Shown here: positions 7,922 through 18,141 of the stretch, one piece after another
Position numbering within the stretch: position 1 is the stretch's first letter
Layout: the number at the start of each line of letters is the position of its first letter
Origin: Candidatus Hydrogenedens sp.
GTDB lineage: Bacteria; Hydrogenedentota; Hydrogenedentia; Hydrogenedentales; Hydrogenedentaceae
Assembly (NCBI GenBank): GCA_049968235.1
Contig: JBMFRC010000004.1
Span: 128,001-192,000 of the forward strand
Length of the DNA: 64,000 nucleotides
Direction of reading: 5' to 3'
The notes under the pieces: model-generated
The model's database searches: none
Seen by the model: only the letters and a program-made list of their open reading frames with translations
What the model was told of the DNA's origin: nothing
Made by a program: the position numbers and the translations under genes

Positions 7922-9253
7922 TTATTTTTTAATTTCAACGAGCCCGAAAGTCATTGATGCTTCTGCAACGACTTGATTTTCTACAGAAGCAATTACTCTT
8001 GCTTTGAACAAATCATTTCGGTAATACAACATCTCTGCTTCTACAACAAGTTGGTCTCCGGGAACGACTAAGCGTCTTAGTGAAGCATTCTCTATCCCAA
8101 TGAAATATGCTTGATAAAGTGGGGGTTCTCCATTTTCACGGAATATAAGGACAGAAGAAACCTGTGCCATGGCTTCAAGAATTAAAACACTGGGCATTAC
8201 AGGAACATCAGGCCAGTGTCCTTGAAAGAATGGCTCGTTTACAGTTACATTTTTGATACCCACTACTTTTTTCATAGATGTAAATTCTATAATTCTATCC
8301 ACCAGGAGAAATGGGTAGCGATGCGGTAATATTCTTAATATTTTGTTTACATCTAAAACAGGGATTTGTCGGTGAGCAGTGGGTCTCGGGTCATGAACCG
8401 CATAAATGCCATATCCGTTTAAATATACTTTTTTAATTTGTTTTGTAAACATGACATTTTTTTCATGTCCGGACTTGACACCGATAATATGTCCAATTAG
8501 AGGTCGCCCTAAAAGATAGGTATCTCCAAGCAAATCAAGAATTTTATGGCGAACGAACTCATCCGGGAAACGAAGTCCATCATTTAGAATTTCTTCATCA
8601 CCAATAACGACTGCACTTTCAAGACTACCTCCCATAATCAATCCCTGTTCTTTTAACATTTTTACTTCTTTCAGAAAACAAAAAGTTCGGGCGGGGGCGA
8701 TTTGAGACATAAAGGTTTCTTCGTTTACGGGGAAACTTGCATACTGGGTTCCGATGGCTACATGGTCGTATGCAATAGTCATTGTTACTCGTAATTCATC
8801 GGAAGGGAGAATATTTAAGGTAACTTCATCCTGTCTATAATAAACAGGTCTATCCACAAGCAGTGCCCTTTTTGGCTCTTCTTGTTCGGTAATTCCTGCT
8901 CTTAAAAGGCAATTCATTACAGGGAGGGCACTACCATCTCCATTGGGTATTTCTTCATTGTCGAGTTCTATATATAAATTATCAATACCTAAACCTGCCA
9001 TTGCTGCTAAGCCATGTTCAACGGTGCGGACTTTAGCACTACCAATACCTATTGTCGTTCCTCGTGAGACATCAACAACATGGTCAATATTAGCAGGGAT
9101 AGCGGGTTTACCAGCCATATCTGTTCGTATAAAAATGATACCTGTATCGGGTGGAGCAGGTTTGAATGTTACTGTGGTCAAACTTCCACTATGTAATCCT
9201 ACTCCTGAAAAAGATACTTCTTTGCTAATGGTTCTTTGGTTTTTCATACGCAA
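7922..9253 (-). CDS. lpxC-fabZ: Bifunctional UDP-3-O-acyl-GlcNAc deacetylase / 3-hydroxyacyl-ACP dehydratase (LpxC-FabZ fusion)
   Basis: N-terminal LpxC sequence (ISKEVSFSGVGLHSGS..., HEKNVMFTK) and C-terminal FabZ hot-dog (ILPHRYPFLLVDRI, GHWPDVPVMP); overlaps lpxD by 10 nt. Confidence 0.85.
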   Translation of the reverse strand: MRMKNQRTISKEVSFSGVGLHSGSLTTVTFKPAPPDTGIIFIRTDMAGKPAIPANIDHVVDVSRGTTIGIGSAKVRTVEHGLAAMAGLGIDNLYIELDNEEIPNGDGSALPVMNCLLRAGITEQEEPKRALLVDRPVYYRQDEVTLNILPSDELRVTMTIAYDHVAIGTQYASFPVNEETFMSQIAPARTFCFLKEVKMLKEQGLIMGGSLESAVVIGDEEILNDGLRFPDEFVRHKILDLLGDTYLLGRPLIGHIIGVKSGHEKNVMFTKQIKKVYLNGYGIYAVHDPRPTAHRQIPVLDVNKILRILPHRYPFLLVDRIIEFTSMKKVVGIKNVTVNEPFFQGHWPDVPVMPSVLILEAMAQVSSVLIFRENGEPPLYQAYFIGIENASLRRLVVPGDQLVVEAEMLYYRNDLFKARVIASVENQVVAEASMTFGLVEIKK

Positions 9254-10305
9254 TCGTTCTCTATTTTTTGAATTTTTATTTCAAGGTCTTTAACTCTTTT
9301 AAGTAGTTCTGGTAAATATTGTTGGGCAACTAATATCCGTTTGGCTCGGGAATGCTCTACAGCAGGAAATCCTGAAAGAATAGCGTCTTTTTCTACGGAT
9401 TTTACTACTCCCGACCATGCGCCGATAGTTGCATTATCTTCGATTGTTATATGTCCGTTAATACCGGCACCTGCACCAATACGAACGCCATTGCCTATAA
9501 CTGCGCTTCCGGCTATGCCCGTAGTTGCAGCAATAGCACAATTATCACCAATTTTAACATTATGTCCTATCTGAACTAAATTATCAATTTTAGTTCCGGA
9601 ACCTATTTTTGTTTCGCCAAAGGTTGCTCTATCAATACAGGAATTACTTCCAATTTCTACATTATCACCAATAATTACCCGTCCCATTTGAGGAACTTTA
9701 ATCCATGCATTACCATCGAACACAAAACCAAATCCGTCCGTGCCGATACAAACTCCAGCATGTATAATACATTGAGAACCTATGGTAGTATTTTCGCGAA
9801 TGGTTACATTAGGGAAAATACATGTGTTCTCGCCTATCTGGCAATTATCGCCGATATAGACATTGGGAAAGATTATGGTGTTTTTCCTAATTTGTGAGTT
9901 TTTTCCAATAAATACATGAGGGCCTATTGCAATTCCTTCTTCTAATTGCACATTTTCTTCAAGAATAGCAGTAGGATGAAGTCCTCTGGGAATAGAAGGT
10001 TGAGAAAATCCAATTTTTTGGAGTATTTGAATAAAAGCAATTTCCGGGTTTTTTACGGCAATGCACACGATTTTTTCAGGTAGGGGAACTGTGGGTTCTT
10101 CTGCGATAAGAACAGCGGAAGCACGTGTCTGGGAAAGGAAAGTTTCATATCTTTTATCACGAATAAATATTAAATCTCCTTCGCGTGCATTCTCTATACT
10201 ATTCAAACCTGTTATTAAAGTATCTTCCTCCCCCCTGATAATTTTGCCGTCTACCCATTGTGCTATTTGTATTGCTTTTATTTGCATTTGTTTTCGAGTA
10301 TTCAA
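9244..10305 (-). CDS. lpxD: UDP-3-O-(3-hydroxyacyl)glucosamine N-acyltransferase LpxD
   Basis: N-terminal LpxD domain followed by long left-handed beta-helix hexapeptide repeats (IG.N..IG...). Confidence 0.85.
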   Translation of the reverse strand: MNTRKQMQIKAIQIAQWVDGKIIRGEEDTLITGLNSIENAREGDLIFIRDKRYETFLSQTRASAVLIAEEPTVPLPEKIVCIAVKNPEIAFIQILQKIGFSQPSIPRGLHPTAILEENVQLEEGIAIGPHVFIGKNSQIRKNTIIFPNVYIGDNCQIGENTCIFPNVTIRENTTIGSQCIIHAGVCIGTDGFGFVFDGNAWIKVPQMGRVIIGDNVEIGSNSCIDRATFGETKIGSGTKIDNLVQIGHNVKIGDNCAIAATTGIAGSAVIGNGVRIGAGAGINGHITIEDNATIGAWSGVVKSVEKDAILSGFPAVEHSRAKRILVAQQYLPELLKRVKDLEIKIQKIENDCV

Positions 10306-10337
10306 ATATGATTATAGTATTGGCAATTCTACCGCAG

Positions 10338-10931
10338 TTATTTTTTGGGTTTGGATGTATCCGTTGCGGAAGAATTAGAATTTAAATATGTTAAAACTTT
10401 AGAAGTAATATCCATAGTTGGACTATGAAATAGCAAGCTACTTTTTAGAGATTTACCCGCATTAAAAACAAGGTGATAATTATCAGAAGTTGCTATTATA
10501 TTTACTGCATTCTGAATATCGTCCAGACATTCACGAATAATTCTTTCTTCTTTACTATCAATTGTCTTTTGTCGTTTCTCAAGTTCAGCCCGATATGATG
10601 CTGCTTCTTGTTCTATCTTCATTTTCAAATCAAGTTTTTCTTCATCGCTCAGGGTTGCTTTACCGGATTCAAGTTTTTTACGGTCTTCTTCAATGCGGTT
10701 CATTAAACTATCTAGGTCTTTTTGCTGAGTGTCTACTTCTTTCTGGAGTTCTTCGTATTTTTGTTTTCTTTTATTATATTCCCTCATAATAAGTTCAACA
10801 TCGACAACAGCGATTCTGTAAGATGTTCCTGTACCTGTAGTTTTAGCAGGTTCTTGTGCTGTTACATACCTTAAAGGAATTAAAATACAACTTAAAGCGA
10901 ATAACGAAATGAAAAAATATCTCCCTTTCAC
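10338..10931 (-). CDS. skp: OmpH/Skp periplasmic chaperone
   Basis: Signal peptide, ~170-aa coiled-coil protein positioned between bamA and lpxD (conserved synteny). Confidence 0.65.
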   Translation of the reverse strand: MKGRYFFISLFALSCILIPLRYVTAQEPAKTTGTGTSYRIAVVDVELIMREYNKRKQKYEELQKEVDTQQKDLDSLMNRIEEDRKKLESGKATLSDEEKLDLKMKIEQEAASYRAELEKRQKTIDSKEERIIRECLDDIQNAVNIIATSDNYHLVFNAGKSLKSSLLFHSPTMDITSKVLTYLNSNSSATDTSKPKK

Positions 10932-11055
10932 AACTTTTCCTTTCTTTTATAGGGTTAATTAACAATTCAGTATAATAAACGAAAGTATATCACATTTTTA
11001 TTTTAAATTTCATTATTTCATGATAGAGAAAATGATTTTAAACTATACTTATGAA

Positions 11056-13371
11056 TTAAAATTGTAAACCTGTGGTCAGATGTAACTTACCATTTCCCTG
11101 GTCTTCATCTGGGTTAAGCGGTATGCCGTAATCTATACGAATAGGTCCAAATTTTGGAATTTCGGCGCCCAATCCAAGTCCGGCACTATACTTTAGGTCG
11201 GATAAATCAAAGTCATTTTCATCCTTCCATACACCACCCATATCAACAAAGGAGTAAATACGGATCATATTTGTTAATTTATATTTTAATTCTAAATTAT
11301 TGACCAGACGGAGATTCCCTCCTTCAGCAATCCAGTCTCCAAACCAGCCATATTCACGAATCTTAGGACCGATATCACGGTAATCGTATCCACGGACTGT
11401 AGTAGTTCCACCTGCATAAAATCTGTAAATCAATGGGATATAATCGGAATCGCCATATTCAGTCATCCAGCCTTCACGGGTTCTTAACATTAAGACCCAT
11501 TTTTGATTTTTGTCTAATGCCTTAAACCATGATAGGTCTAATTGCAACTTAACAAAATTATTGTCGCCTCCGAGTCCTGCAAGCTCAGAACTCAAGATGG
11601 CATTGATACCCCGGGATGGGTCTCTGGGACGGTCCAAAGTATTTCTTTCAAGACTCAATATAGTGCTAACTGTGGTTGAATTTTCGGTTTGTCTACGAAT
11701 TTCTCTATTAATGAACCATGGCAAATCACTAACATCTACATCTTCTACACGGAATGATAAACGGGCGGTGTTATATAATGAAAGAGCTTTTCCAAATCGT
11801 ATTTGTCCACCTGCCTGATTTTCCCGATAATCCGCACCACCCCTTACCCAATAGGATTCGTTATAGAGGTCAACACCTAAAGATATAGGGTAACCTAAAA
11901 TTTCAGGGTCTGTAAAACTTACATTATAGCGGTCTCTTCTATCCCCAAGGTGAACGCGAGCTGAAAATTGCTGTCCACCACCAGAAAAATGGGGCCAGTT
12001 GGTAATGTCAAAGTTTCTCAAACGAAGTTGTGCAAATCCACCAACACCTTCATCTGTGCTATAGCCTGCCCCAAATAAAAATGAATTGGTTTTTCCTTCT
12101 TCAACATCGACAAGCAAATTGGAATATCTTGTGTCAATCTCATCATCTGTAAGTGTGATACGAACTTTATCAAAATAGTCTGTATTTTCAAGCCTTAACC
12201 GACTGGATTCTATAGAGGAGCCATCATACCTTTCACCGGGCTTTATTAACATTTGTCGGCGAATGACATCATCTTGAGTAACATCGTTACCGGTAATATC
12301 TATTTGTTTAATATATTTTAATTCGCCTTCTGATATATTATATACGATATTTGTTGTTTTATTTTGTTCATCTTTTGATACCTGTGGTGTAACTGTTGCA
12401 TCGACGTAGCCACTATCGCGATATTTGATTTCTAATTTTTGGGCATCTTTAGCAACCTGCCCTTTATTATGAATATCTTCAGGTTTTACTTTTATTTCTT
12501 TCTCGAATTCGTCATTGTCGTATACAGTATTATTTGCATACTGAATGGAATTAACTTTGTACTGTTCTCCTTCTTCTACAAATAATTTAATTTTTAATTT
12601 TTTACCTCCATCTGTGTAGAGGACATCTGTATGTGTTACCTTTGCATCTAAATATCCGTTATCTCCATATTTATTTATGACATTTTCCAAATCATTTTCG
12701 AATTTTGTTTCATCATATTTTCCACCTAAAAACCACCAAGCAGGTTTTGTCTTCATTGCCTTTTTAATTTGTCGGTCTGATAAAGCGATGTTTCCTTCGA
12801 TTTCAATTTCTTTAATACGTGCTTTTTTACCTTCATCAATGGAGTATATAATCCGAACAAGTCCGGGTTCTATTTTTTCCGTTATGACATCAACTTTCGT
12901 ATTTGCATAACCTTTGCCCTGATACATATTAATAATAGATTTTCTGTCTTCTTCACATAATTCTGGAATAAAGGAAGCACCTCTTTTCTGTTTTAAGGTA
13001 GGTTCTATGACACGTGGTTTTATCTTCTTGCAACCTATTATTTTTACATCTGCAATTCTTCGTTCTTCTTCAACAATGAATACAACCTTCACTCCATTTC
13101 CTTCTGGAGTAACTTCTGCATCGACTTTTACAAAATAACCCAGACCGTAAATTCTTTTTAAATCTCTTGCGATAGAACGAGGATTTAAGTTTTGTCCCGT
13201 TTTTGTTTCTACTTTACCCAAAACTACCTGTTCATTTATTTTTTCTAATCCTTTTACCTGAACAGCAGTTATTTCCTTTCCGGCGTATTCTTCTAATTGA
13301 GCCATGAGATTACTGCAAAACAGAAAAATAGCGAAAAAATAACCTACATACATGTATCTTGTGTTCAACAT
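11056..13371 (-). CDS. bamA: Outer membrane protein assembly factor BamA (POTRA repeats + Omp85 beta-barrel)
   Basis: 771 aa, signal peptide, repeated POTRA-like modules, C-terminal beta-barrel ending in aromatic residue (…TTGLQF). Confidence 0.85.
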   Translation of the reverse strand: MLNTRYMYVGYFFAIFLFCSNLMAQLEEYAGKEITAVQVKGLEKINEQVVLGKVETKTGQNLNPRSIARDLKRIYGLGYFVKVDAEVTPEGNGVKVVFIVEEERRIADVKIIGCKKIKPRVIEPTLKQKRGASFIPELCEEDRKSIINMYQGKGYANTKVDVITEKIEPGLVRIIYSIDEGKKARIKEIEIEGNIALSDRQIKKAMKTKPAWWFLGGKYDETKFENDLENVINKYGDNGYLDAKVTHTDVLYTDGGKKLKIKLFVEEGEQYKVNSIQYANNTVYDNDEFEKEIKVKPEDIHNKGQVAKDAQKLEIKYRDSGYVDATVTPQVSKDEQNKTTNIVYNISEGELKYIKQIDITGNDVTQDDVIRRQMLIKPGERYDGSSIESSRLRLENTDYFDKVRITLTDDEIDTRYSNLLVDVEEGKTNSFLFGAGYSTDEGVGGFAQLRLRNFDITNWPHFSGGGQQFSARVHLGDRRDRYNVSFTDPEILGYPISLGVDLYNESYWVRGGADYRENQAGGQIRFGKALSLYNTARLSFRVEDVDVSDLPWFINREIRRQTENSTTVSTILSLERNTLDRPRDPSRGINAILSSELAGLGGDNNFVKLQLDLSWFKALDKNQKWVLMLRTREGWMTEYGDSDYIPLIYRFYAGGTTTVRGYDYRDIGPKIREYGWFGDWIAEGGNLRLVNNLELKYKLTNMIRIYSFVDMGGVWKDENDFDLSDLKYSAGLGLGAEIPKFGPIRIDYGIPLNPDEDQGNGKLHLTTGLQF

Positions 13372-13430: not shown

Positions 13431-15932
13431 CTAATTTGTTATTAATTTTACTGTATTATTATCGTTTTTTTGTAACTGATTTTCAAATTCATTTTCTATC
13501 TGAGTAAATTCCAATTTTTTGTTATCCTCGGAAAATGTAATTAGTATAGTATTTCCTTCTTTAATATCACCAATAAGTAATTTTTCTGCAAGGGGGTCTT
13601 CGATATTTTGTTGAATAGCCCGTCTTAAGGGTCGAGCTCCATATTCTTCACTACTACCAATTTGCACAAGGAATTTTTTTGCTTCAGGTGTAATTTCTAA
13701 TTTTACCTGTTTCTCCGTTAATTTTTTAGCAACTTCGGCAATCTGTATATCTATAATTTTTTCTAATTCTTCCTGAGTAAGCCGATGAAACACTAAAATC
13801 TCATCCAATCTATTTAGAAATTCGGGATTAAAAGTTTTTCGTACTTCTTCCATTACGCGGTCGCGCATTTTTTCGTATTCTTCTTCAATGGTATCTTTTT
13901 GAAATCCTAACGAAGTGGATTTTCCGATTTTACGGGCTCCAATGTTGGAAGTTAATACTATAACTGTGTTTTTGAAATCTATTTTTCTTCCACTCCCATC
14001 TGTCATTTGTCCTTCTTCAAGGATTTGAAGTAATGTGTTAAATATATCTGGATGTGCCTTTTCTATTTCGTCGAACAGAACAACTGAATAAGGTCTTCTT
14101 CGCACCTGCTCTGTAAGTTGTCCTCCTTCATCATAACCAATATATCCTGGAGGTGCACCCATTAAACGGGATACAGTAAATTTTTCCATATATTCGGACA
14201 TATCCAGTGTAATTAATGCTCGCTCATCTCCGAATAAAAATTCTGCCAATTTTTTTGCAAGTAATGTTTTACCTACACCGGTAGGACCTAAGAAAAGAAA
14301 AGACCCTACAGGGCGATTACTATGGCGTATGCCGGCTCTTGACCTTTGTATGGCTCGGGTAATAGCATCGATAGCCATATCCTGTCCGACGATAGATTTA
14401 TGTAATTCATCACGCATACGAAGTAATCGTTCGGATTCTGTTTCTCCAATTTTGGTCAGGGGAACACCTGTCCATTTGGATACGACATAAGCAATATCTT
14501 CCGAAGTTACAATTGCTTGAGAAGAATCCCTTTGTGATTCCCATTCTTTTTTCTTTTCCTGATACTGGGACTGAAGTCGGCGTTCTTTGTCTCTCAATGA
14601 CGCTGCTTTTTCAAATTCCTGATGCTTTATTGCTATTTCTTTTTCTTGTGTTACTTTTTCTATTTCTATTTCTAACTCTTTTAATTCTTTAGGACGTGTA
14701 GTAATCTGCAATCGCACTCGACTTCCGGCTTCATCCAACACATCTATTGCTTTATCCGGTAAATAACGGTCTGTAATATATTGGTCGGAAAGTTTCACGG
14801 CAGAGATAATGGCATCATCTGTATATTTAACTTTATGATGGGCTTCATATTTATCCCGGAGTCCTTCGAGAATTTTTATTGTTCCTTCTGGAGAAGGCGC
14901 TTCAACAAAAATAGTTTGAAAGCGTCTGGCTAATGCTGCATCTTTTTCAATATATTTTCGATATTCATCCGCAGTAGTTGCACCAATGCATTGAAGTTCT
15001 CCTCGTGCGAGTGCGGGTTTTAACATATTTGCTGCGTCCACAGCCCCTTCTGCGGCACCTGCACCGACAATGGTATGTATTTCATCAATAAAAAGAATGA
15101 TATTATCTTCACGTTGAATTTCTTTCATTACACTCTTTAGTCGCTCTTCAAACTGGCCTCGATATTTTGTCCCTGCAATAACAGACCCTAAATCCAATGT
15201 CAATACTCTTTTATTAAGAAGTAAATCGGGGACATTTCCATTAACAATAGATTGAGCAAGTCCTTCCACAATTGCAGTTTTACCTACGCCGGCTTCTCCA
15301 ATTAAAACAGGATTATTTTTTGTTCTTCTGCTCAATATTTGTATAACCCTCTCTATTTCAGTTTCTCTGCCAATTACAGGGTCTAATTTCCCTTCTCTTG
15401 CTAAGAAAGTTAGGTCTCTGCCGAATGTGTCAAGTGCCGGTGTTGTAGATTTTCTCCGTTCGTGCATTTCACCTTTAGAACTGGGTTTTCCATGTTCCCC
15501 AAGTAGTTTCATGATTTCTGTTTGTGCTCGATTTAAATCGACACCAAACTCGGCTAACAATTTAGCGGCGACACTTTCTCCTTCTTTGATTAGCCCTAAA
15601 AGTATATGTTCTGTCCCGATATAGCTATGATTAAAGCGATGTGCTTCTTCTGCTGCCATTTCCAATACTTTTTTGGCACGGGGAGTATATGTTATTTCTT
15701 CGGAGGTAAGTAAGGCAGGTCCCTGCGGACTCCGGTGTTCTATTTCTTGTATTAATTGTTCTAAATCTATCCCCATACTCAGTAATGCTTTTGCTGCAAT
15801 TCCTTCAACTTCGAGACAAAGAGCAAAGAGGATATGTTCGGTTCGTACATATTCACTGCCTCTTTTCACGGCTTCAGTTCGAGCAACTGATATTACATGT
15901 CGGGCTCTCTCTGTAAAGCGTTCCCACAACAT
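13431..15932 (-). CDS. clpC: ATP-dependent Clp protease ATP-binding subunit ClpC
   Basis: Clp_N repeats, two AAA+ modules (GEAGVGKT and GPTGVGKT Walker A), UVR-like linker, ClpB_D2-small domain. Confidence 0.85.
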
Positions 15933-15969
15933 TTATTTTCTCCCTAAAAATGTATTCTTTTATGAATAA

Positions 15970-17112
15970 TCAATTGTTGAATATTTCTTTAAATTTATTA
16001 GCACGCATCAAACTCATTTTTACCGTATTATTCCCATTAGAAGTTAGATTTACAAGAATGTGCCCTCCTTGAAGTTCAAATAACAGGTGCAAAGGTAATA
16101 AGGGAATTGATGCTGATGTTAAATTTAAGGAAAACCCTAATTGAAGAGCAGACCATAATTCTATAGCTTCCGCAAACTCTAAAAATCGTGACCCTTTTGC
16201 AACTCCTTCTGCTCTACCCACCATATCTTCTAATGTTAGTTTACTGGAAGTAAGTAGTTTTTGTCGTGCATCCATTTCCGCTTTTGTTATTTCACTGGCC
16301 ATGTGAGATAAGGAGAAAACAATTTCTGCCTCTGAAAAACCTAATGTATATCTATTCCCAATAACGAACAAGCTACCTACTGTTTCAATTAAGCCTACTG
16401 TTACAGGGGATGATAAGGAACTATGAAGCCCCTGTTCGATTATATGTTTGGGTATTGCCAGAGGTCGTGCATCGGCGGGGGGACCTGTTTTTACACCTTT
16501 GAGATAAAAACCTAAAGATTTTAATTTTTCTTCCCAGAGTAAGATACTTCCTGTTCTTGCTAAACCGGGAAGGTGAAGTATGGTAAATAATTTTAACCCT
16601 GTTCCAATAAAGTTTAAATCTGAAGTTAAAAAACCTAATCTTGGGTCGGTCATATAATCTACAGAAATACTCATACGGTCATCTATCTGGTTCAGGAGTT
16701 CCCATACTTTCTCTACTTGAAGTCCGGCGAATACTGTGCGGTAAGCAATATGTTCTCCTGCATTTACCATTACTGAGAATCGCTGGTCTTTACTAATAAA
16801 TGCACCTCTATGTCCAATTCCGGAAAGTAAGTCGTAAGCCACAAGAAACCGTTCTGACAGGAACAGATTTTCTCGTGGTGAAGTCCCGGCAAAACTAATG
16901 TAATCATCTATTGAAATTCCATCTAATCGGAGAGTATTTTCTTTTACTAAATCCTCGAGCCGTTGTTTCTCTTCTTCGCTCATTCTCATAGGGAAAAAGA
17001 AGCCGGCAACATTACGGCACAGCGTCCCTATAGTTAAAATCGACACGGGTGCACCGGAGATTTCTTCTTTCCACCAAACAGGTTTATTTTCGACCCATGT
17101 TTTCATCATCAT
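15970..17112 (-). CDS. mcsB: Protein arginine kinase McsB-like (ATP:guanido phosphotransferase family), divergent active-site signature
   Basis: Phosphagen-kinase C-terminal domain (DYMTDPRLGFLTSDLNFIGTGLK..HLPGL); sits between mcsA and clpC. Confidence 0.65.
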   Translation of the reverse strand: MMMKTWVENKPVWWKEEISGAPVSILTIGTLCRNVAGFFFPMRMSEEEKQRLEDLVKENTLRLDGISIDDYISFAGTSPRENLFLSERFLVAYDLLSGIGHRGAFISKDQRFSVMVNAGEHIAYRTVFAGLQVEKVWELLNQIDDRMSISVDYMTDPRLGFLTSDLNFIGTGLKLFTILHLPGLARTGSILLWEEKLKSLGFYLKGVKTGPPADARPLAIPKHIIEQGLHSSLSSPVTVGLIETVGSLFVIGNRYTLGFSEAEIVFSLSHMASEITKAEMDARQKLLTSSKLTLEDMVGRAEGVAKGSRFLEFAEAIELWSALQLGFSLNLTSASIPLLPLHLLFELQGGHILVNLTSNGNNTVKMSLMRANKFKEIFNN

Positions 17113-17115
17113 AAA

Positions 17116-17643
17116 TTAATTTTTACCTATTTTCCATGAAGATAGCATTTTTTCTAAATCTAAAATTTCATCACGTAATTTGGCTGCGGATTCATAGTCT
17201 TCTGATTTAATAGCCTGTCGTATCAATGCTTTTTTAGTATCCAGTAGAATTTGTGTCCGAACCCGTTCCTCATCATTGGCATAATTTAGTTTTTTGCCGA
17301 TATGGGAACTTCCTCCTTGAATAACCTCAAGAATAGATTCTATTTCAGGACCAAAAGTTTTGTAGCAAGTGAAACATCCTACTTTATTTTTTTCATGAAT
17401 ATAATTAATTTGCGTTCCACAAACAGAACATACAGTTTTTGTTTTTGATTTTTTTATAGTCACTTCTGTTTCCTCAAGTCGGTCTTTAACCTGTGGTTCC
17501 ACGAAATTAAAACTAAAGCCCTTCGGATTTTTCTGAATTTCGACAAGGCAATCGGGGCATAAATGTATTTCTGTTACATGCCCATCAATCACTTCCGCAT
17601 ATCGAACTGATGCAAGTTTTTTATGGCATTTTTGACAAAGCAT
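17116..17643 (-). CDS. mcsA: McsA-like zinc-finger/UVR-domain protein (McsB activator)
   Basis: Paired CxxC motifs (CQKCH...CPDC; CSVCG...CFTC) and C-terminal UVR motif (DYESAAKLRDEILDLEK). Confidence 0.7.
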   Translation of the reverse strand: MLCQKCHKKLASVRYAEVIDGHVTEIHLCPDCLVEIQKNPKGFSFNFVEPQVKDRLEETEVTIKKSKTKTVCSVCGTQINYIHEKNKVGCFTCYKTFGPEIESILEVIQGGSSHIGKKLNYANDEERVRTQILLDTKKALIRQAIKSEDYESAAKLRDEILDLEKMLSSWKIGKN

Positions 17644-17706
17644 TTTGTGTTCCTTTAACTTTTACCTATAATTATAACATTATAAGTATATTCCCTTCAC
17701 ATTTGT

Positions 17707-18141
17707 ATGTTTAGAATTGAGATTTACAATTTGAGGAAGAGAATTGAAATTATCTACAATAAATCTAATTCTAATTTTTATTCTGTAATTGAAAGTGTTT
17801 ACCCGGTGAACGAGAAGAGAAAACAATACAAATTTACAATAAGGAAAGTGGCTATACATAATCAAAAACTAATAAAGATTGTTTGTATAGCACTTGCTTT
17901 GTATCTGTTGATTGCAGTTCTTCATGGATTGCTACCTGGCATCTGGGATAAATCTTTTGGTGGTAAAGAGGGAAAAGGACCTTTCCGAATTTTAATGTTT
18001 ACCCCTCTTCTTGTTTTATTGTTATTTTTTACCCTGATGAAGTATCCGTCAGAAAAAAATATCTTCCCAAAACCTAAAAACAGTTATATAAAGGTTATAC
18101 TCCAGCCTAATTCTCATCGGGGACCTCCTTCTTTTATGTAA
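17707..18141 (+). CDS. Possible small membrane protein (two predicted TM helices) in the mcsA upstream region; may be non-coding
   Basis: 144-aa ORF with two hydrophobic stretches (IVCIALALYLLIAVLHGLLPGIW; ILMFTPLLVLLLFFTL) in an AT-rich 596-bp intergenic region; no clear RBS. Confidence 0.15.
   Translation: MFRIEIYNLRKRIEIIYNKSNSNFYSVIESVYPVNEKRKQYKFTIRKVAIHNQKLIKIVCIALALYLLIAVLHGLLPGIWDKSFGGKEGKGPFRILMFTPLLVLLLFFTLMKYPSEKNIFPKPKNSYIKVILQPNSHRGPPSFM

Follow-up and report, generated by a model that had tools for sequence, protein, structure and literature searches.

The genes mcsA, mcsB and clpC are best known from the ctsR-mcsA-mcsB-clpC operons of Bacillus subtilis and Geobacillus stearothermophilus (structures 6FH1, 6TV6 and 8WTB). 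A long-standing debate concerns the action of McsB on ClpC, as an adaptor or solely as the writer of the phospho-arginine (pArg) degron, and in Bacillus the two roles are inseparable. The first gene of this class III heat-shock operon is ctsR, and the CtsR operator is a direct repeat of the form A/GGTCAAA-NAN-A/GGTCAAA. The same mcsA-mcsB-clpC order is present in a 64,000-nucleotide stretch of DNA from Candidatus Hydrogenedens sp. (phylum Hydrogenedentota; contig JBMFRC010000004.1, positions 128,001 to 192,000 of the forward strand), referred to below as the window, where the McsB homolog, designated McsB* (gene mcsB*), retains the predicted fold and partner-binding surface of McsB while the residues of its active site have been lost. 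The two systems are alike in the two Cys4 zinc fingers and UVR-like coiled coil of McsA, the two-domain fold of McsB, the McsA-McsB contact residues, and the pArg pockets, UVR M-domain and ClpP loop of ClpC. They differ in that the Hydrogenedens locus lacks ctsR and a CtsR box, belongs to a diderm host and forms part of a gene string running into bamA-skp-lpxD-lpxC/fabZ, and in that the McsB residues E121, C167, E212, R29, R31, R125, R207 and R337/D338 are lost, R176 is a lysine and the lid is replaced. A first sequence-only reading of this DNA had described the arrangement as exactly that of the Bacillus operon, which overstates the likeness, given the missing ctsR, a plain extended -10 promoter and the downstream gene string.

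Other described systems share individual features with this locus. Chlamydia trachomatis is a diderm with a McsA/McsB pair and ClpC but without the Bacillus CtsR circuit, and its mcsAB genes lie apart from clpC, are flanked by tRNAs and are thought to have been horizontally acquired (PMC10128030), whereas the Hydrogenedentota module is phylum-wide, adjoins clpC and is catalytically degenerate. As McsAB has thus already been documented in a diderm, and a canonical McsAB is also found in an Elusimicrobia metagenome-assembled genome (MAG), the occurrence of a Firmicutes-type module in a diderm is neither new nor unusual in itself. The mycobacterial ClpC1 and ClpC2 proteins likewise have conserved pArg pockets with no active McsB evident and no known arginine kinase (PMC13345244, PMC9604228), but mycobacteria have no McsB homolog, whereas the present locus retains McsA together with an apparently dead McsB. 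Pseudokinases and other pseudoenzymes acting as scaffolds or allosteric regulators (PMC10211241, PMC12599244) present a further parallel, their folds and interfaces being under selection while their catalytic residues drift; the bacterial pseudokinases described have Hanks-type or BY-kinase folds, while McsB* has a phosphagen-kinase fold. No report of a McsB or phosphagen-kinase-fold pseudoenzyme was found in the searchable literature, which does not prove that none exists, and nothing relevant was found there for Hydrogenedentes together with ClpC. As far as this literature shows, a conserved phosphagen-kinase-fold pseudoenzyme lineage kept with McsA and ClpC would be new, as would the conserved position of the pseudoenzyme module directly upstream of a bamA-lpx cluster.

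Three consecutive open reading frames (ORFs), all on the minus strand, fill positions 13431-17643 of the window:

17116..17643, minus strand: mcsA-like gene, 175 amino acids (aa), with zinc finger 1 (C3/C6/C29/C32), zinc finger 2 (C72/C75/C90/C93) and a C-terminal UVR-type coiled coil.
15970..17112, minus strand: mcsB-like gene (mcsB*), 380 aa, with a phosphagen-kinase-fold domain and the McsB C-terminal dimerisation domain, without the catalytic set.
13431..15932, minus strand: clpC, 833 aa, with an N-domain, two AAA+ modules, a short UVR-type M-domain and a ClpP-docking loop.

The mcsB* start lies 3 nucleotides (nt) from the mcsA stop codon, and 37 nt separate mcsB* from clpC. These positions and the gene families, as first read from the sequence, are supported by Pfam and NCBIfam matches. 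The McsA-like protein matches Pfam UVR (Bitscore: 30) and NCBIfam McsA (Bitscore: 89, below the cutoff of 210), and its alignment with B. subtilis McsA (8wtb_B; phmmer E-value: 5e-18) spans the entire protein. It therefore shows all the features of McsA, namely two Cys4 motifs, a UVR-like coiled coil and adjacency to mcsB, while missing the NCBIfam equivalog cutoff. McsB* contains a Pfam ATP-gua_Ptrans domain (PF00217; Bitscore: 106; E-value: 2e-30), and the precomputed domains of an identical database protein (P0001), which comes from a 'Candidatus Hydrogenedens sp.' MAG, are PF00217 and PF27454 (McsB_C), so that a kinase-like domain followed by the McsB dimerisation domain is evident both from Pfam and from the predicted structure described below. 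The nearest solved structures are those of McsB (8wtb, 6tv6 and 6fh1; phmmer E-values of about 1e-33 to 1e-30), and the closest species-representative genome is that of Candidatus Hydrogenedens terephthalaticus (92% identity). McsB* nevertheless falls well below the NCBIfam equivalog cutoffs (NF002194: 171 bits against 385; NF053707: 149 bits against 500). Its orthologs are labelled 'hypothetical protein' at NCBI and 'protein arginine kinase' at IMG. As judged from its sequence, which fails both the catalytic features and the equivalog cutoffs, McsB* should not be classified among the protein arginine kinases, and the IMG labels are very unlikely to denote kinases.

The active site of McsB* was compared with those of the B. 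subtilis and Geobacillus McsB proteins (PDB 8wtb, 6tv6 and 6fh1) by phmmer pairwise alignment and by a 164-sequence MAFFT alignment, which were independent and concordant. The full-length B. subtilis McsB sequence that served as reference for MAFFT agrees with the PDB chains, and C167 (PMC11046695) and R337/D338 (PMC8370763) fall at their published positions in it. The catalytic site of McsB is formed by C167 and the NEEDH motif (PMC11046695), and R337A/D338A is the pArg-receptor mutant of the protein (PMC8370763), while the roles assigned to E121, E212 and the arginines rest on knowledge of phosphagen kinases together with PMC11046695. Four altered sites are distinguished in McsB*:

16750..16764, minus strand: degenerate NEEDH motif, N117-A-G-E-H121, with E121 replaced by Gly119 and, beyond it, R125 by Ala123.
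16600..16623, minus strand: degenerate reactive-Cys signature S-D-L-N-F-I-G-T, residues 164-171, with C167 replaced by Asp165, P168 by Leu and N170 by Phe.
16387..16491, minus strand: 35-residue insertion, residues 208-242, in place of the 14-residue lid / active-site loop-2 that bears the catalytic E212.
16000..16020, minus strand: former pArg receptor site K-M-S-L-M-R-A, with R337/D338 replaced by M366/S367, and R341-A342 kept as R370-A371.

Segment by segment, S-S-R29-I-R31-L-A-R34-N of B. subtilis McsB reads L-T-I-G-T-L-C-R-N in McsB* (R29 to I, R31 to T), N-E-E121-D-H-I-R125 reads N-A-G-E-H-I-A, and S-C167-P-T-N-V-G-T is aligned with S-D-L-N-F-I-G-T. In the GTGL-R sequence that follows this signature R176 has become Lys174, the whole stretch C167-P-T-N-V-G-T-G-L-R176 reading D-L-N-F-I-G-T-G-L-K. 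R207-G-I-Y-G-E212 is represented by K205 and then by the insertion, at which the phmmer match to McsB is split (McsB* residues 207 and 243), and E212 is lost. The six phosphate-binding arginine and second-glutamate positions (R29, R31, R125, R176, R207 and E212), which are invariant in 70-72 of the 72 canonical representatives described below, are thus I, T, A, K, K and missing, respectively. By established knowledge of phosphagen kinases, McsB R29/R31/R125/R176/R207 and E121/E212 are equivalent to R124/R126/R229/R280/R309 and E225/E314 of arginine kinase, and an ungapped offset to arginine kinase chains was observed here. E243 was considered as a relocated E212 and rejected, as it aligns with E215 and is equally semi-conserved in canonical McsB.

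The replacement of the reactive Cys and Pro had been recognised in the sequence-only reading and is borne out, but the change is far wider than these two residues. The catalytic glutamates and the pArg pocket of McsB, whose conservation had been proposed as a check, are not conserved in the alignment, and a reactive Cys at a shifted position, the outcome that would have undone the observation, is absent, the sole Cys of McsB* (C32) not being conserved among its relatives. By alignment, the catalytic Glu/Cys/Glu set, the phosphate-binding residues, the lid loop and the pArg receptor are all lost from McsB*.

The same state extends well beyond this genome. Exhaustive searching of 1.84 billion representatives with HMMER yielded 2973 McsB-like matches, and 157 full-length sequences were aligned, comprising the B. 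subtilis reference, a set of proteins with eight close relatives from Hydrogenedens among them, and the top-ranking representatives of the search. McsB* is located in one cluster of 66 of these 157 sequences, as grouped by the unweighted pair group method with arithmetic mean (UPGMA) on Kimura-corrected distances, which delimits a cluster rather than a tested or rooted clade, and all 66 members lack both E121 and C167. Eight catalytic positions had been fixed beforehand (R29, R31, E121, R125, C167, R176, R207 and E212). Two of them, E121 and C167, had served to delimit the canonical representatives, and the remaining six are independent. All eight are kept by 70 of the 72 canonical representatives; in the cluster, none is kept by 24 members, one by 27, two by ten, three by four and four by a single member. 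Column entropy at the eight positions is 0.04 bits in canonical McsB against 3.04 bits in the cluster, while over the rest of the protein the values are 2.17 and 2.05 bits, respectively, and the former catalytic columns rank within the most variable 17% of the protein in the cluster. Five of the six phosphate-site arginines vary freely, and arginine and aspartate are not among the commonest residues at the positions of R337 and D338, respectively. The lid loop, which is 14 aa long in 72/72 canonical representatives, exceeds 35 aa in 41/66 cluster members. Nine columns have been gained in the cluster (D, R, G, L, L, E, V, L and F), all of them outside the cleft motifs, and no replacement Cys, Glu or Arg is conserved at or around the lost positions among the 66 members. 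As far as the alignment can tell, the old catalytic sites are relaxed, with no sign of re-wiring. The taxon-named members of the cluster, only about a dozen of the 66, are all Hydrogenedentota MAGs; the degenerate state is old and phylum-wide in Hydrogenedentota, with no recent import.

Some catalytic losses were also observed in McsB-like representatives outside the cluster (P0013, P0096, P0104, P0107, P0108, P0111, P0114, P0118, P0119, P0122, P0128, P0131, P0137, P0144, P0152 and P0158). In P0013 both arginine pairs and E121 are kept, but the protein carries C167D, R207Q and E212A. Partial degeneration of McsB may have happened several times outside the Hydrogenedentota-type cluster.

The remainder of the protein is well preserved. 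The ratio of non-synonymous to synonymous substitution rates (dN/dS) against Ca. H. terephthalaticus is 0.051 for mcsB*, 0.054 for mcsA and 0.031 for clpC. An AlphaFold2 (AF2) model of McsB*, built with 43 cluster sequences, is confident (predicted local distance difference test, pLDDT: 93.7; predicted template modelling score, pTM: 0.93), including the 35-aa insertion (block pLDDT 89-97), and Foldseek matches it to full-length McsB (6tv6/6fh1), dimerisation domain included, with template modelling (TM) scores of 0.83-0.90. Thirty-three columns are conserved at ≥85% in the canonical and degenerate groups alike, among them E251, R255, D268, R272, E287, S293, G298, R341 and A342 of the dimerisation domain. 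They also include the three McsB residues F41, T165 and E233, which hydrogen-bond McsA G98, Y103 and K127 in the 8WTB complex (PMC11046695) and are kept in 58/58, 50/58 and 58/58 dereplicated cluster members, respectively. On the partner side, all eight McsA orthologs keep the eight zinc-binding Cys residues, G98, Y103, H124 and K127 (B. subtilis numbering) and the UVR-like helix. In sequence and model alike, the retained features are the signature of a pseudoenzyme predicted still to fold, dimerise and bind McsA.

Gene order is conserved to a similar extent. A scan of genome contigs with McsB* as the sole query reached only four close Hydrogenedens-like genomes; in every locus examined, mcsA and mcsB* are 2-9 nt apart. 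The clpC gene is found directly downstream of mcsB* in the window and in loci L001, L005, L006, L007 and L008, the last of these on a contig that ends inside the downstream gene, and after one inserted Clp_N gene in L002, such that it follows immediately or almost immediately in the window and in six of the seven other loci. This gene order holds even in L001, L002 and L005, where identity to the McsB* of the window falls to about 32-36%. The low dN/dS, the confident fold, the kept McsA interface and the conserved gene order together indicate that McsB* is still functional.

The ClpC protein of the window has the Pfam architecture Clp_N (twice), AAA, AAA_lid_9, UVR, AAA_2 and ClpB_D2-small, and its N-domain matches that of B. 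subtilis ClpC (5hbn; E-value: 4e-41). The features of a class I Hsp100 protein of the ClpC type are all present, namely the double Clp_N, two AAA+ modules, the UVR M-domain and the [LIV]-G-[FL] loop, the latter being the ClpP-docking loop L-G-F at residues 675-677, which is also present in all six Hydrogenedentota ClpCs aligned. No clpP gene was detected in the 64-kb window by tblastn with a B. subtilis ClpP query. The pArg pockets of ClpC comprise T7, E32, T81, K85 and E106 in B. subtilis/S. aureus numbering, with roles described for E32 and E106 (PMC12583610), and the predicted equivalents T7, E32, T83, K87 and E108 are kept in the window ClpC and in 6/6 of the aligned Hydrogenedentota proteins. 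These intact pockets may mean that pArg is still read and that its writer is encoded elsewhere. Alternatively, they may serve resting-state contacts (PMC12583610), a situation comparable to that of mycobacteria, which have no known arginine kinase (PMC13345244).

Two further observations concern ClpC in related loci. A stand-alone 169-aa Clp_N protein is encoded between mcsB* and clpC on a Hydrogenedentiales contig (L002:11236-11745, also L003:3846-4355); it keeps the first pArg-pocket Glu (S-E-H) while the second is Ala (G-T-A-H), and thus, like mycobacterial ClpC2, has one pocket of two. In Ca. H. terephthalaticus (AWNW01000010.1; L011:5181-7154) the clpC frame breaks after codon 655, with the upstream part 96% identical to the window ClpC, which is likely the result of a frameshift or an assembly error.

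Taken at face value, its sequence indicates that McsB* is very probably not an arginine kinase. The kinase chemistry appears to be gone phylum-wide, yet the link between McsB, McsA and ClpC is under strong selection, which argues for a kinase-independent role, and on balance we lean towards McsA and McsB* forming a non-catalytic complex that serves as a regulator or adaptor of ClpC. In such a system, McsA, with its two zinc fingers and coiled coil, would still bind the pseudoenzyme, which keeps the fold, dimerisation domain and McsA-binding surface of McsB. The complex would regulate ClpC, or bring substrates to it, in the absence of arginine phosphorylation, and ClpC would pass them to a ClpP encoded elsewhere. 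Expression would be driven by a plain extended -10 promoter free of CtsR control, probably together with bamA-skp-lpxD-lpxC/fabZ. Of the two possibilities raised in the sequence-only reading, a McsB acting mainly as a ClpC adaptor is therefore the one favoured here, with the adaptor function itself being what we infer, while the use of different catalytic residues is disfavoured. McsB* of Hydrogenedentota would represent a ready-made system for probing a kinase-independent role of McsB.

Several points weigh against this interpretation. Pseudoenzymes have sometimes proved to be active, and the inactivity of McsB* is deduced from sequence. In B. subtilis, the adaptor function of McsB reportedly needs its kinase activity, as is said to follow from the work of Kirstein in 2007 and of Trentini in 2016, and to our knowledge a kinase-independent adaptor role of McsB is without precedent. 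The pArg pockets are intact in all the Hydrogenedentota ClpCs examined, and pArg signalling could persist through another kinase. One locus, L004, has mcsA-mcsB* without an adjacent clpC. Furthermore, remnants of the nucleotide site survive in the McsB* lineage, namely H182, the G-T-G-L turn and a Lys or Arg at position 176 in 42/58 dereplicated members (50/66 of all members), and McsB* may therefore still bind a ligand.

Some of these points could equally be accommodated if McsA and McsB* had a non-catalytic role that does not run through ClpC, for example in regulation by zinc or redox sensing, in sequestration, or in the sensing of guanidino compounds or nucleotides, the adjacency to clpC being historical. 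The arrangement in L004 fits such a role, as do the Elusimicrobia MAG, which carries canonical mcsA-mcsB alone, and the mcsAB genes of Chlamydia, which are encoded away from clpC (PMC10128030), while the leftover nucleotide-site features fit ligand sensing. Set against this are the presence of clpC downstream in the window and in six of the seven other loci, over McsB* identities down to about 32%, and the fact that the known functions of McsA and McsB all converge on ClpC and CtsR, so that we consider a role apart from ClpC unlikely, although it deserves serious attention.

Far less probable is continued activity of McsB* as a protein arginine kinase or some other phosphotransferase by means of a different, relocated set of catalytic residues. 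The fold is intact, N119, D/E122 and H123 of the NEEDH strand are kept along with the GTGL turn and H182, a Lys or Arg is frequent at 176, and the pArg pockets of ClpC are kept, all of which could be expected of a re-wired kinase. However, no conserved substitute Cys, Glu or Arg has been gained in the cluster, and the lack of conserved replacements in and around the former site tells against a re-wired kinase, as do the unconserved sole Cys, the free variation at five of the six phosphate-site arginines, the replaced lid loop and catalytic columns that rank among the most variable of the protein. That mcsB* is a functionless, decaying remnant in the course of being lost, as its 171 bits against the NCBIfam cutoff of 385 and the NCBI label of its orthologs might suggest, is barely credible and effectively refuted by the selection and conservation data, namely dN/dS of 0.04-0.05, a confident predicted fold, intact full-length ORFs in at least 66 clusters at 50% identity, and non-catalytic columns as constrained as those of canonical McsB (2.05 against 2.17 bits).

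With regard to transcription, two elements were located upstream of mcsA:

17671..17700, minus strand: putative module promoter, with a -35-like GTGAAG (17695-17700) and an extended -10 element TGTTATAAT (17671-17679), spacer 18 nt, assigned by consensus match and conservation.
17651..17656, minus strand: Shine-Dalgarno-like AAAGGA, 7 nt upstream of the mcsA start codon, with an AGGA core that is invariant in four aligned loci.

In the four Hydrogenedens-like loci aligned, the region upstream of mcsA shares only the -35-like hexamer, the extended -10 and the ribosome-binding site, while the spacer and flanks vary, and there is no conserved operator-like repeat between the putative promoter and the ribosome-binding site. 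The counts from promoter and terminator scans were not above shuffled expectation, and the conserved extended -10 alone is reported. The absence of ctsR and of a CtsR box, as first noted from the sequence, was upheld. No match at E≤1 was obtained in the window or related loci by tblastn with the CtsR of comparator locus L010, and a B. subtilis CtsR query gave chance-level matches only (E≥2; about 20 bits) in the same sequences. Neither a CtsR box nor a CIRCE (controlling inverted repeat of chaperone expression) element is present upstream of mcsA, and the genes upstream encode a small membrane protein and a DUF1559 protein, with no ctsR. The comparator L010, by contrast, has the order ctsR-mcsA-mcsB-clpC, a McsB that is canonical at 11/11 positions and a GGTCAG-N4-GGTCAG repeat upstream. 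A tblastn search with a B. subtilis YwlE query found nothing in the 64-kb window.

Directly 3' of clpC, the window continues into genes for outer-membrane biogenesis:

7922..13371, minus strand: bamA (11056-13371), skp (10338-10931), lpxD (9244-10305) and an lpxC-fabZ fusion (7922-9253).

The encoded BamA, with five POTRA domains and an Omp85 domain, and the Skp/OmpH, LpxD and LpxC-FabZ proteins were confirmed by Pfam, and a diderm genome, as originally proposed, is thereby supported. The LpxC-FabZ fusion is 443 aa long, with LpxC at residues 6-274 and a FabA-like domain at 309-432, and the same fusion occurs in all related loci. The order mcsA-mcsB*-clpC-bamA-skp-lpxD-lpxC/fabZ recurs in L001 (a 5.1-Mb contig), L002 (Hydrogenedentiales) and L005, as well as in the closer L006 and L007. 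No terminator-like site is present in the 59-nt clpC-bamA gap of the window, and co-transcription of the clpC module with bamA-skp-lpxD-lpxC/fabZ is plausible. In L001, L002 and L005 there is a 4-7-nt overlap between clpC and bamA as called, although these bamA starts are non-ATG calls and perhaps over-extended.

As clpC directly precedes the outer-membrane genes in the window and in these five loci, which span the diversity of McsB*, the module could control the turnover of LpxC/FabZ or of unassembled outer-membrane proteins. A fuller version of this proposal, in which McsA-McsB* arose within Hydrogenedentota or before it, acts on ClpC as an adaptor or regulator without phosphorylation, and is perhaps functionally tied to outer-membrane biogenesis, is offered very tentatively and is doubtful as a whole. 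If true, it would mean that the adaptor role of the McsB scaffold is separable from arginine phosphorylation. The conserved placement of clpC before bamA-skp-lpxD-lpxC/fabZ suggests that, in this little-studied phylum, cytoplasmic proteolysis may be connected with outer-membrane assembly.

On the other side of the module, a small conserved ORF (17707-18141, plus strand) is divergent from mcsA; its product has no Pfam match and appears to be membrane-embedded. Homologs in L006 and L007 are 97-98 aa long and share the motif LHG..PGIW.KSFGG.E.KGPFRIL.FTP, and translation of the window ORF, listed with 144 aa, probably begins near codon 48. Beyond it lies a gene for a protein with a prepilin-type N-methylation motif and a DUF1559 domain (PF07963, PF07596; 18239-19189, plus strand), which occupies the same position in L006, L007 and L008. 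The same set of small ORF, mcsA, mcsB* and clpC was also observed in L014 (CAZJTZ010000001.1), a 375-kb contig labelled 'uncultured Nitrospirales bacterium', with protein identities to the window of 56%, 78%, 79% and 90%, respectively. Probably the bin carries a wrong label or the contig was assigned to the wrong bin, the sequence being in fact Hydrogenedens-like.

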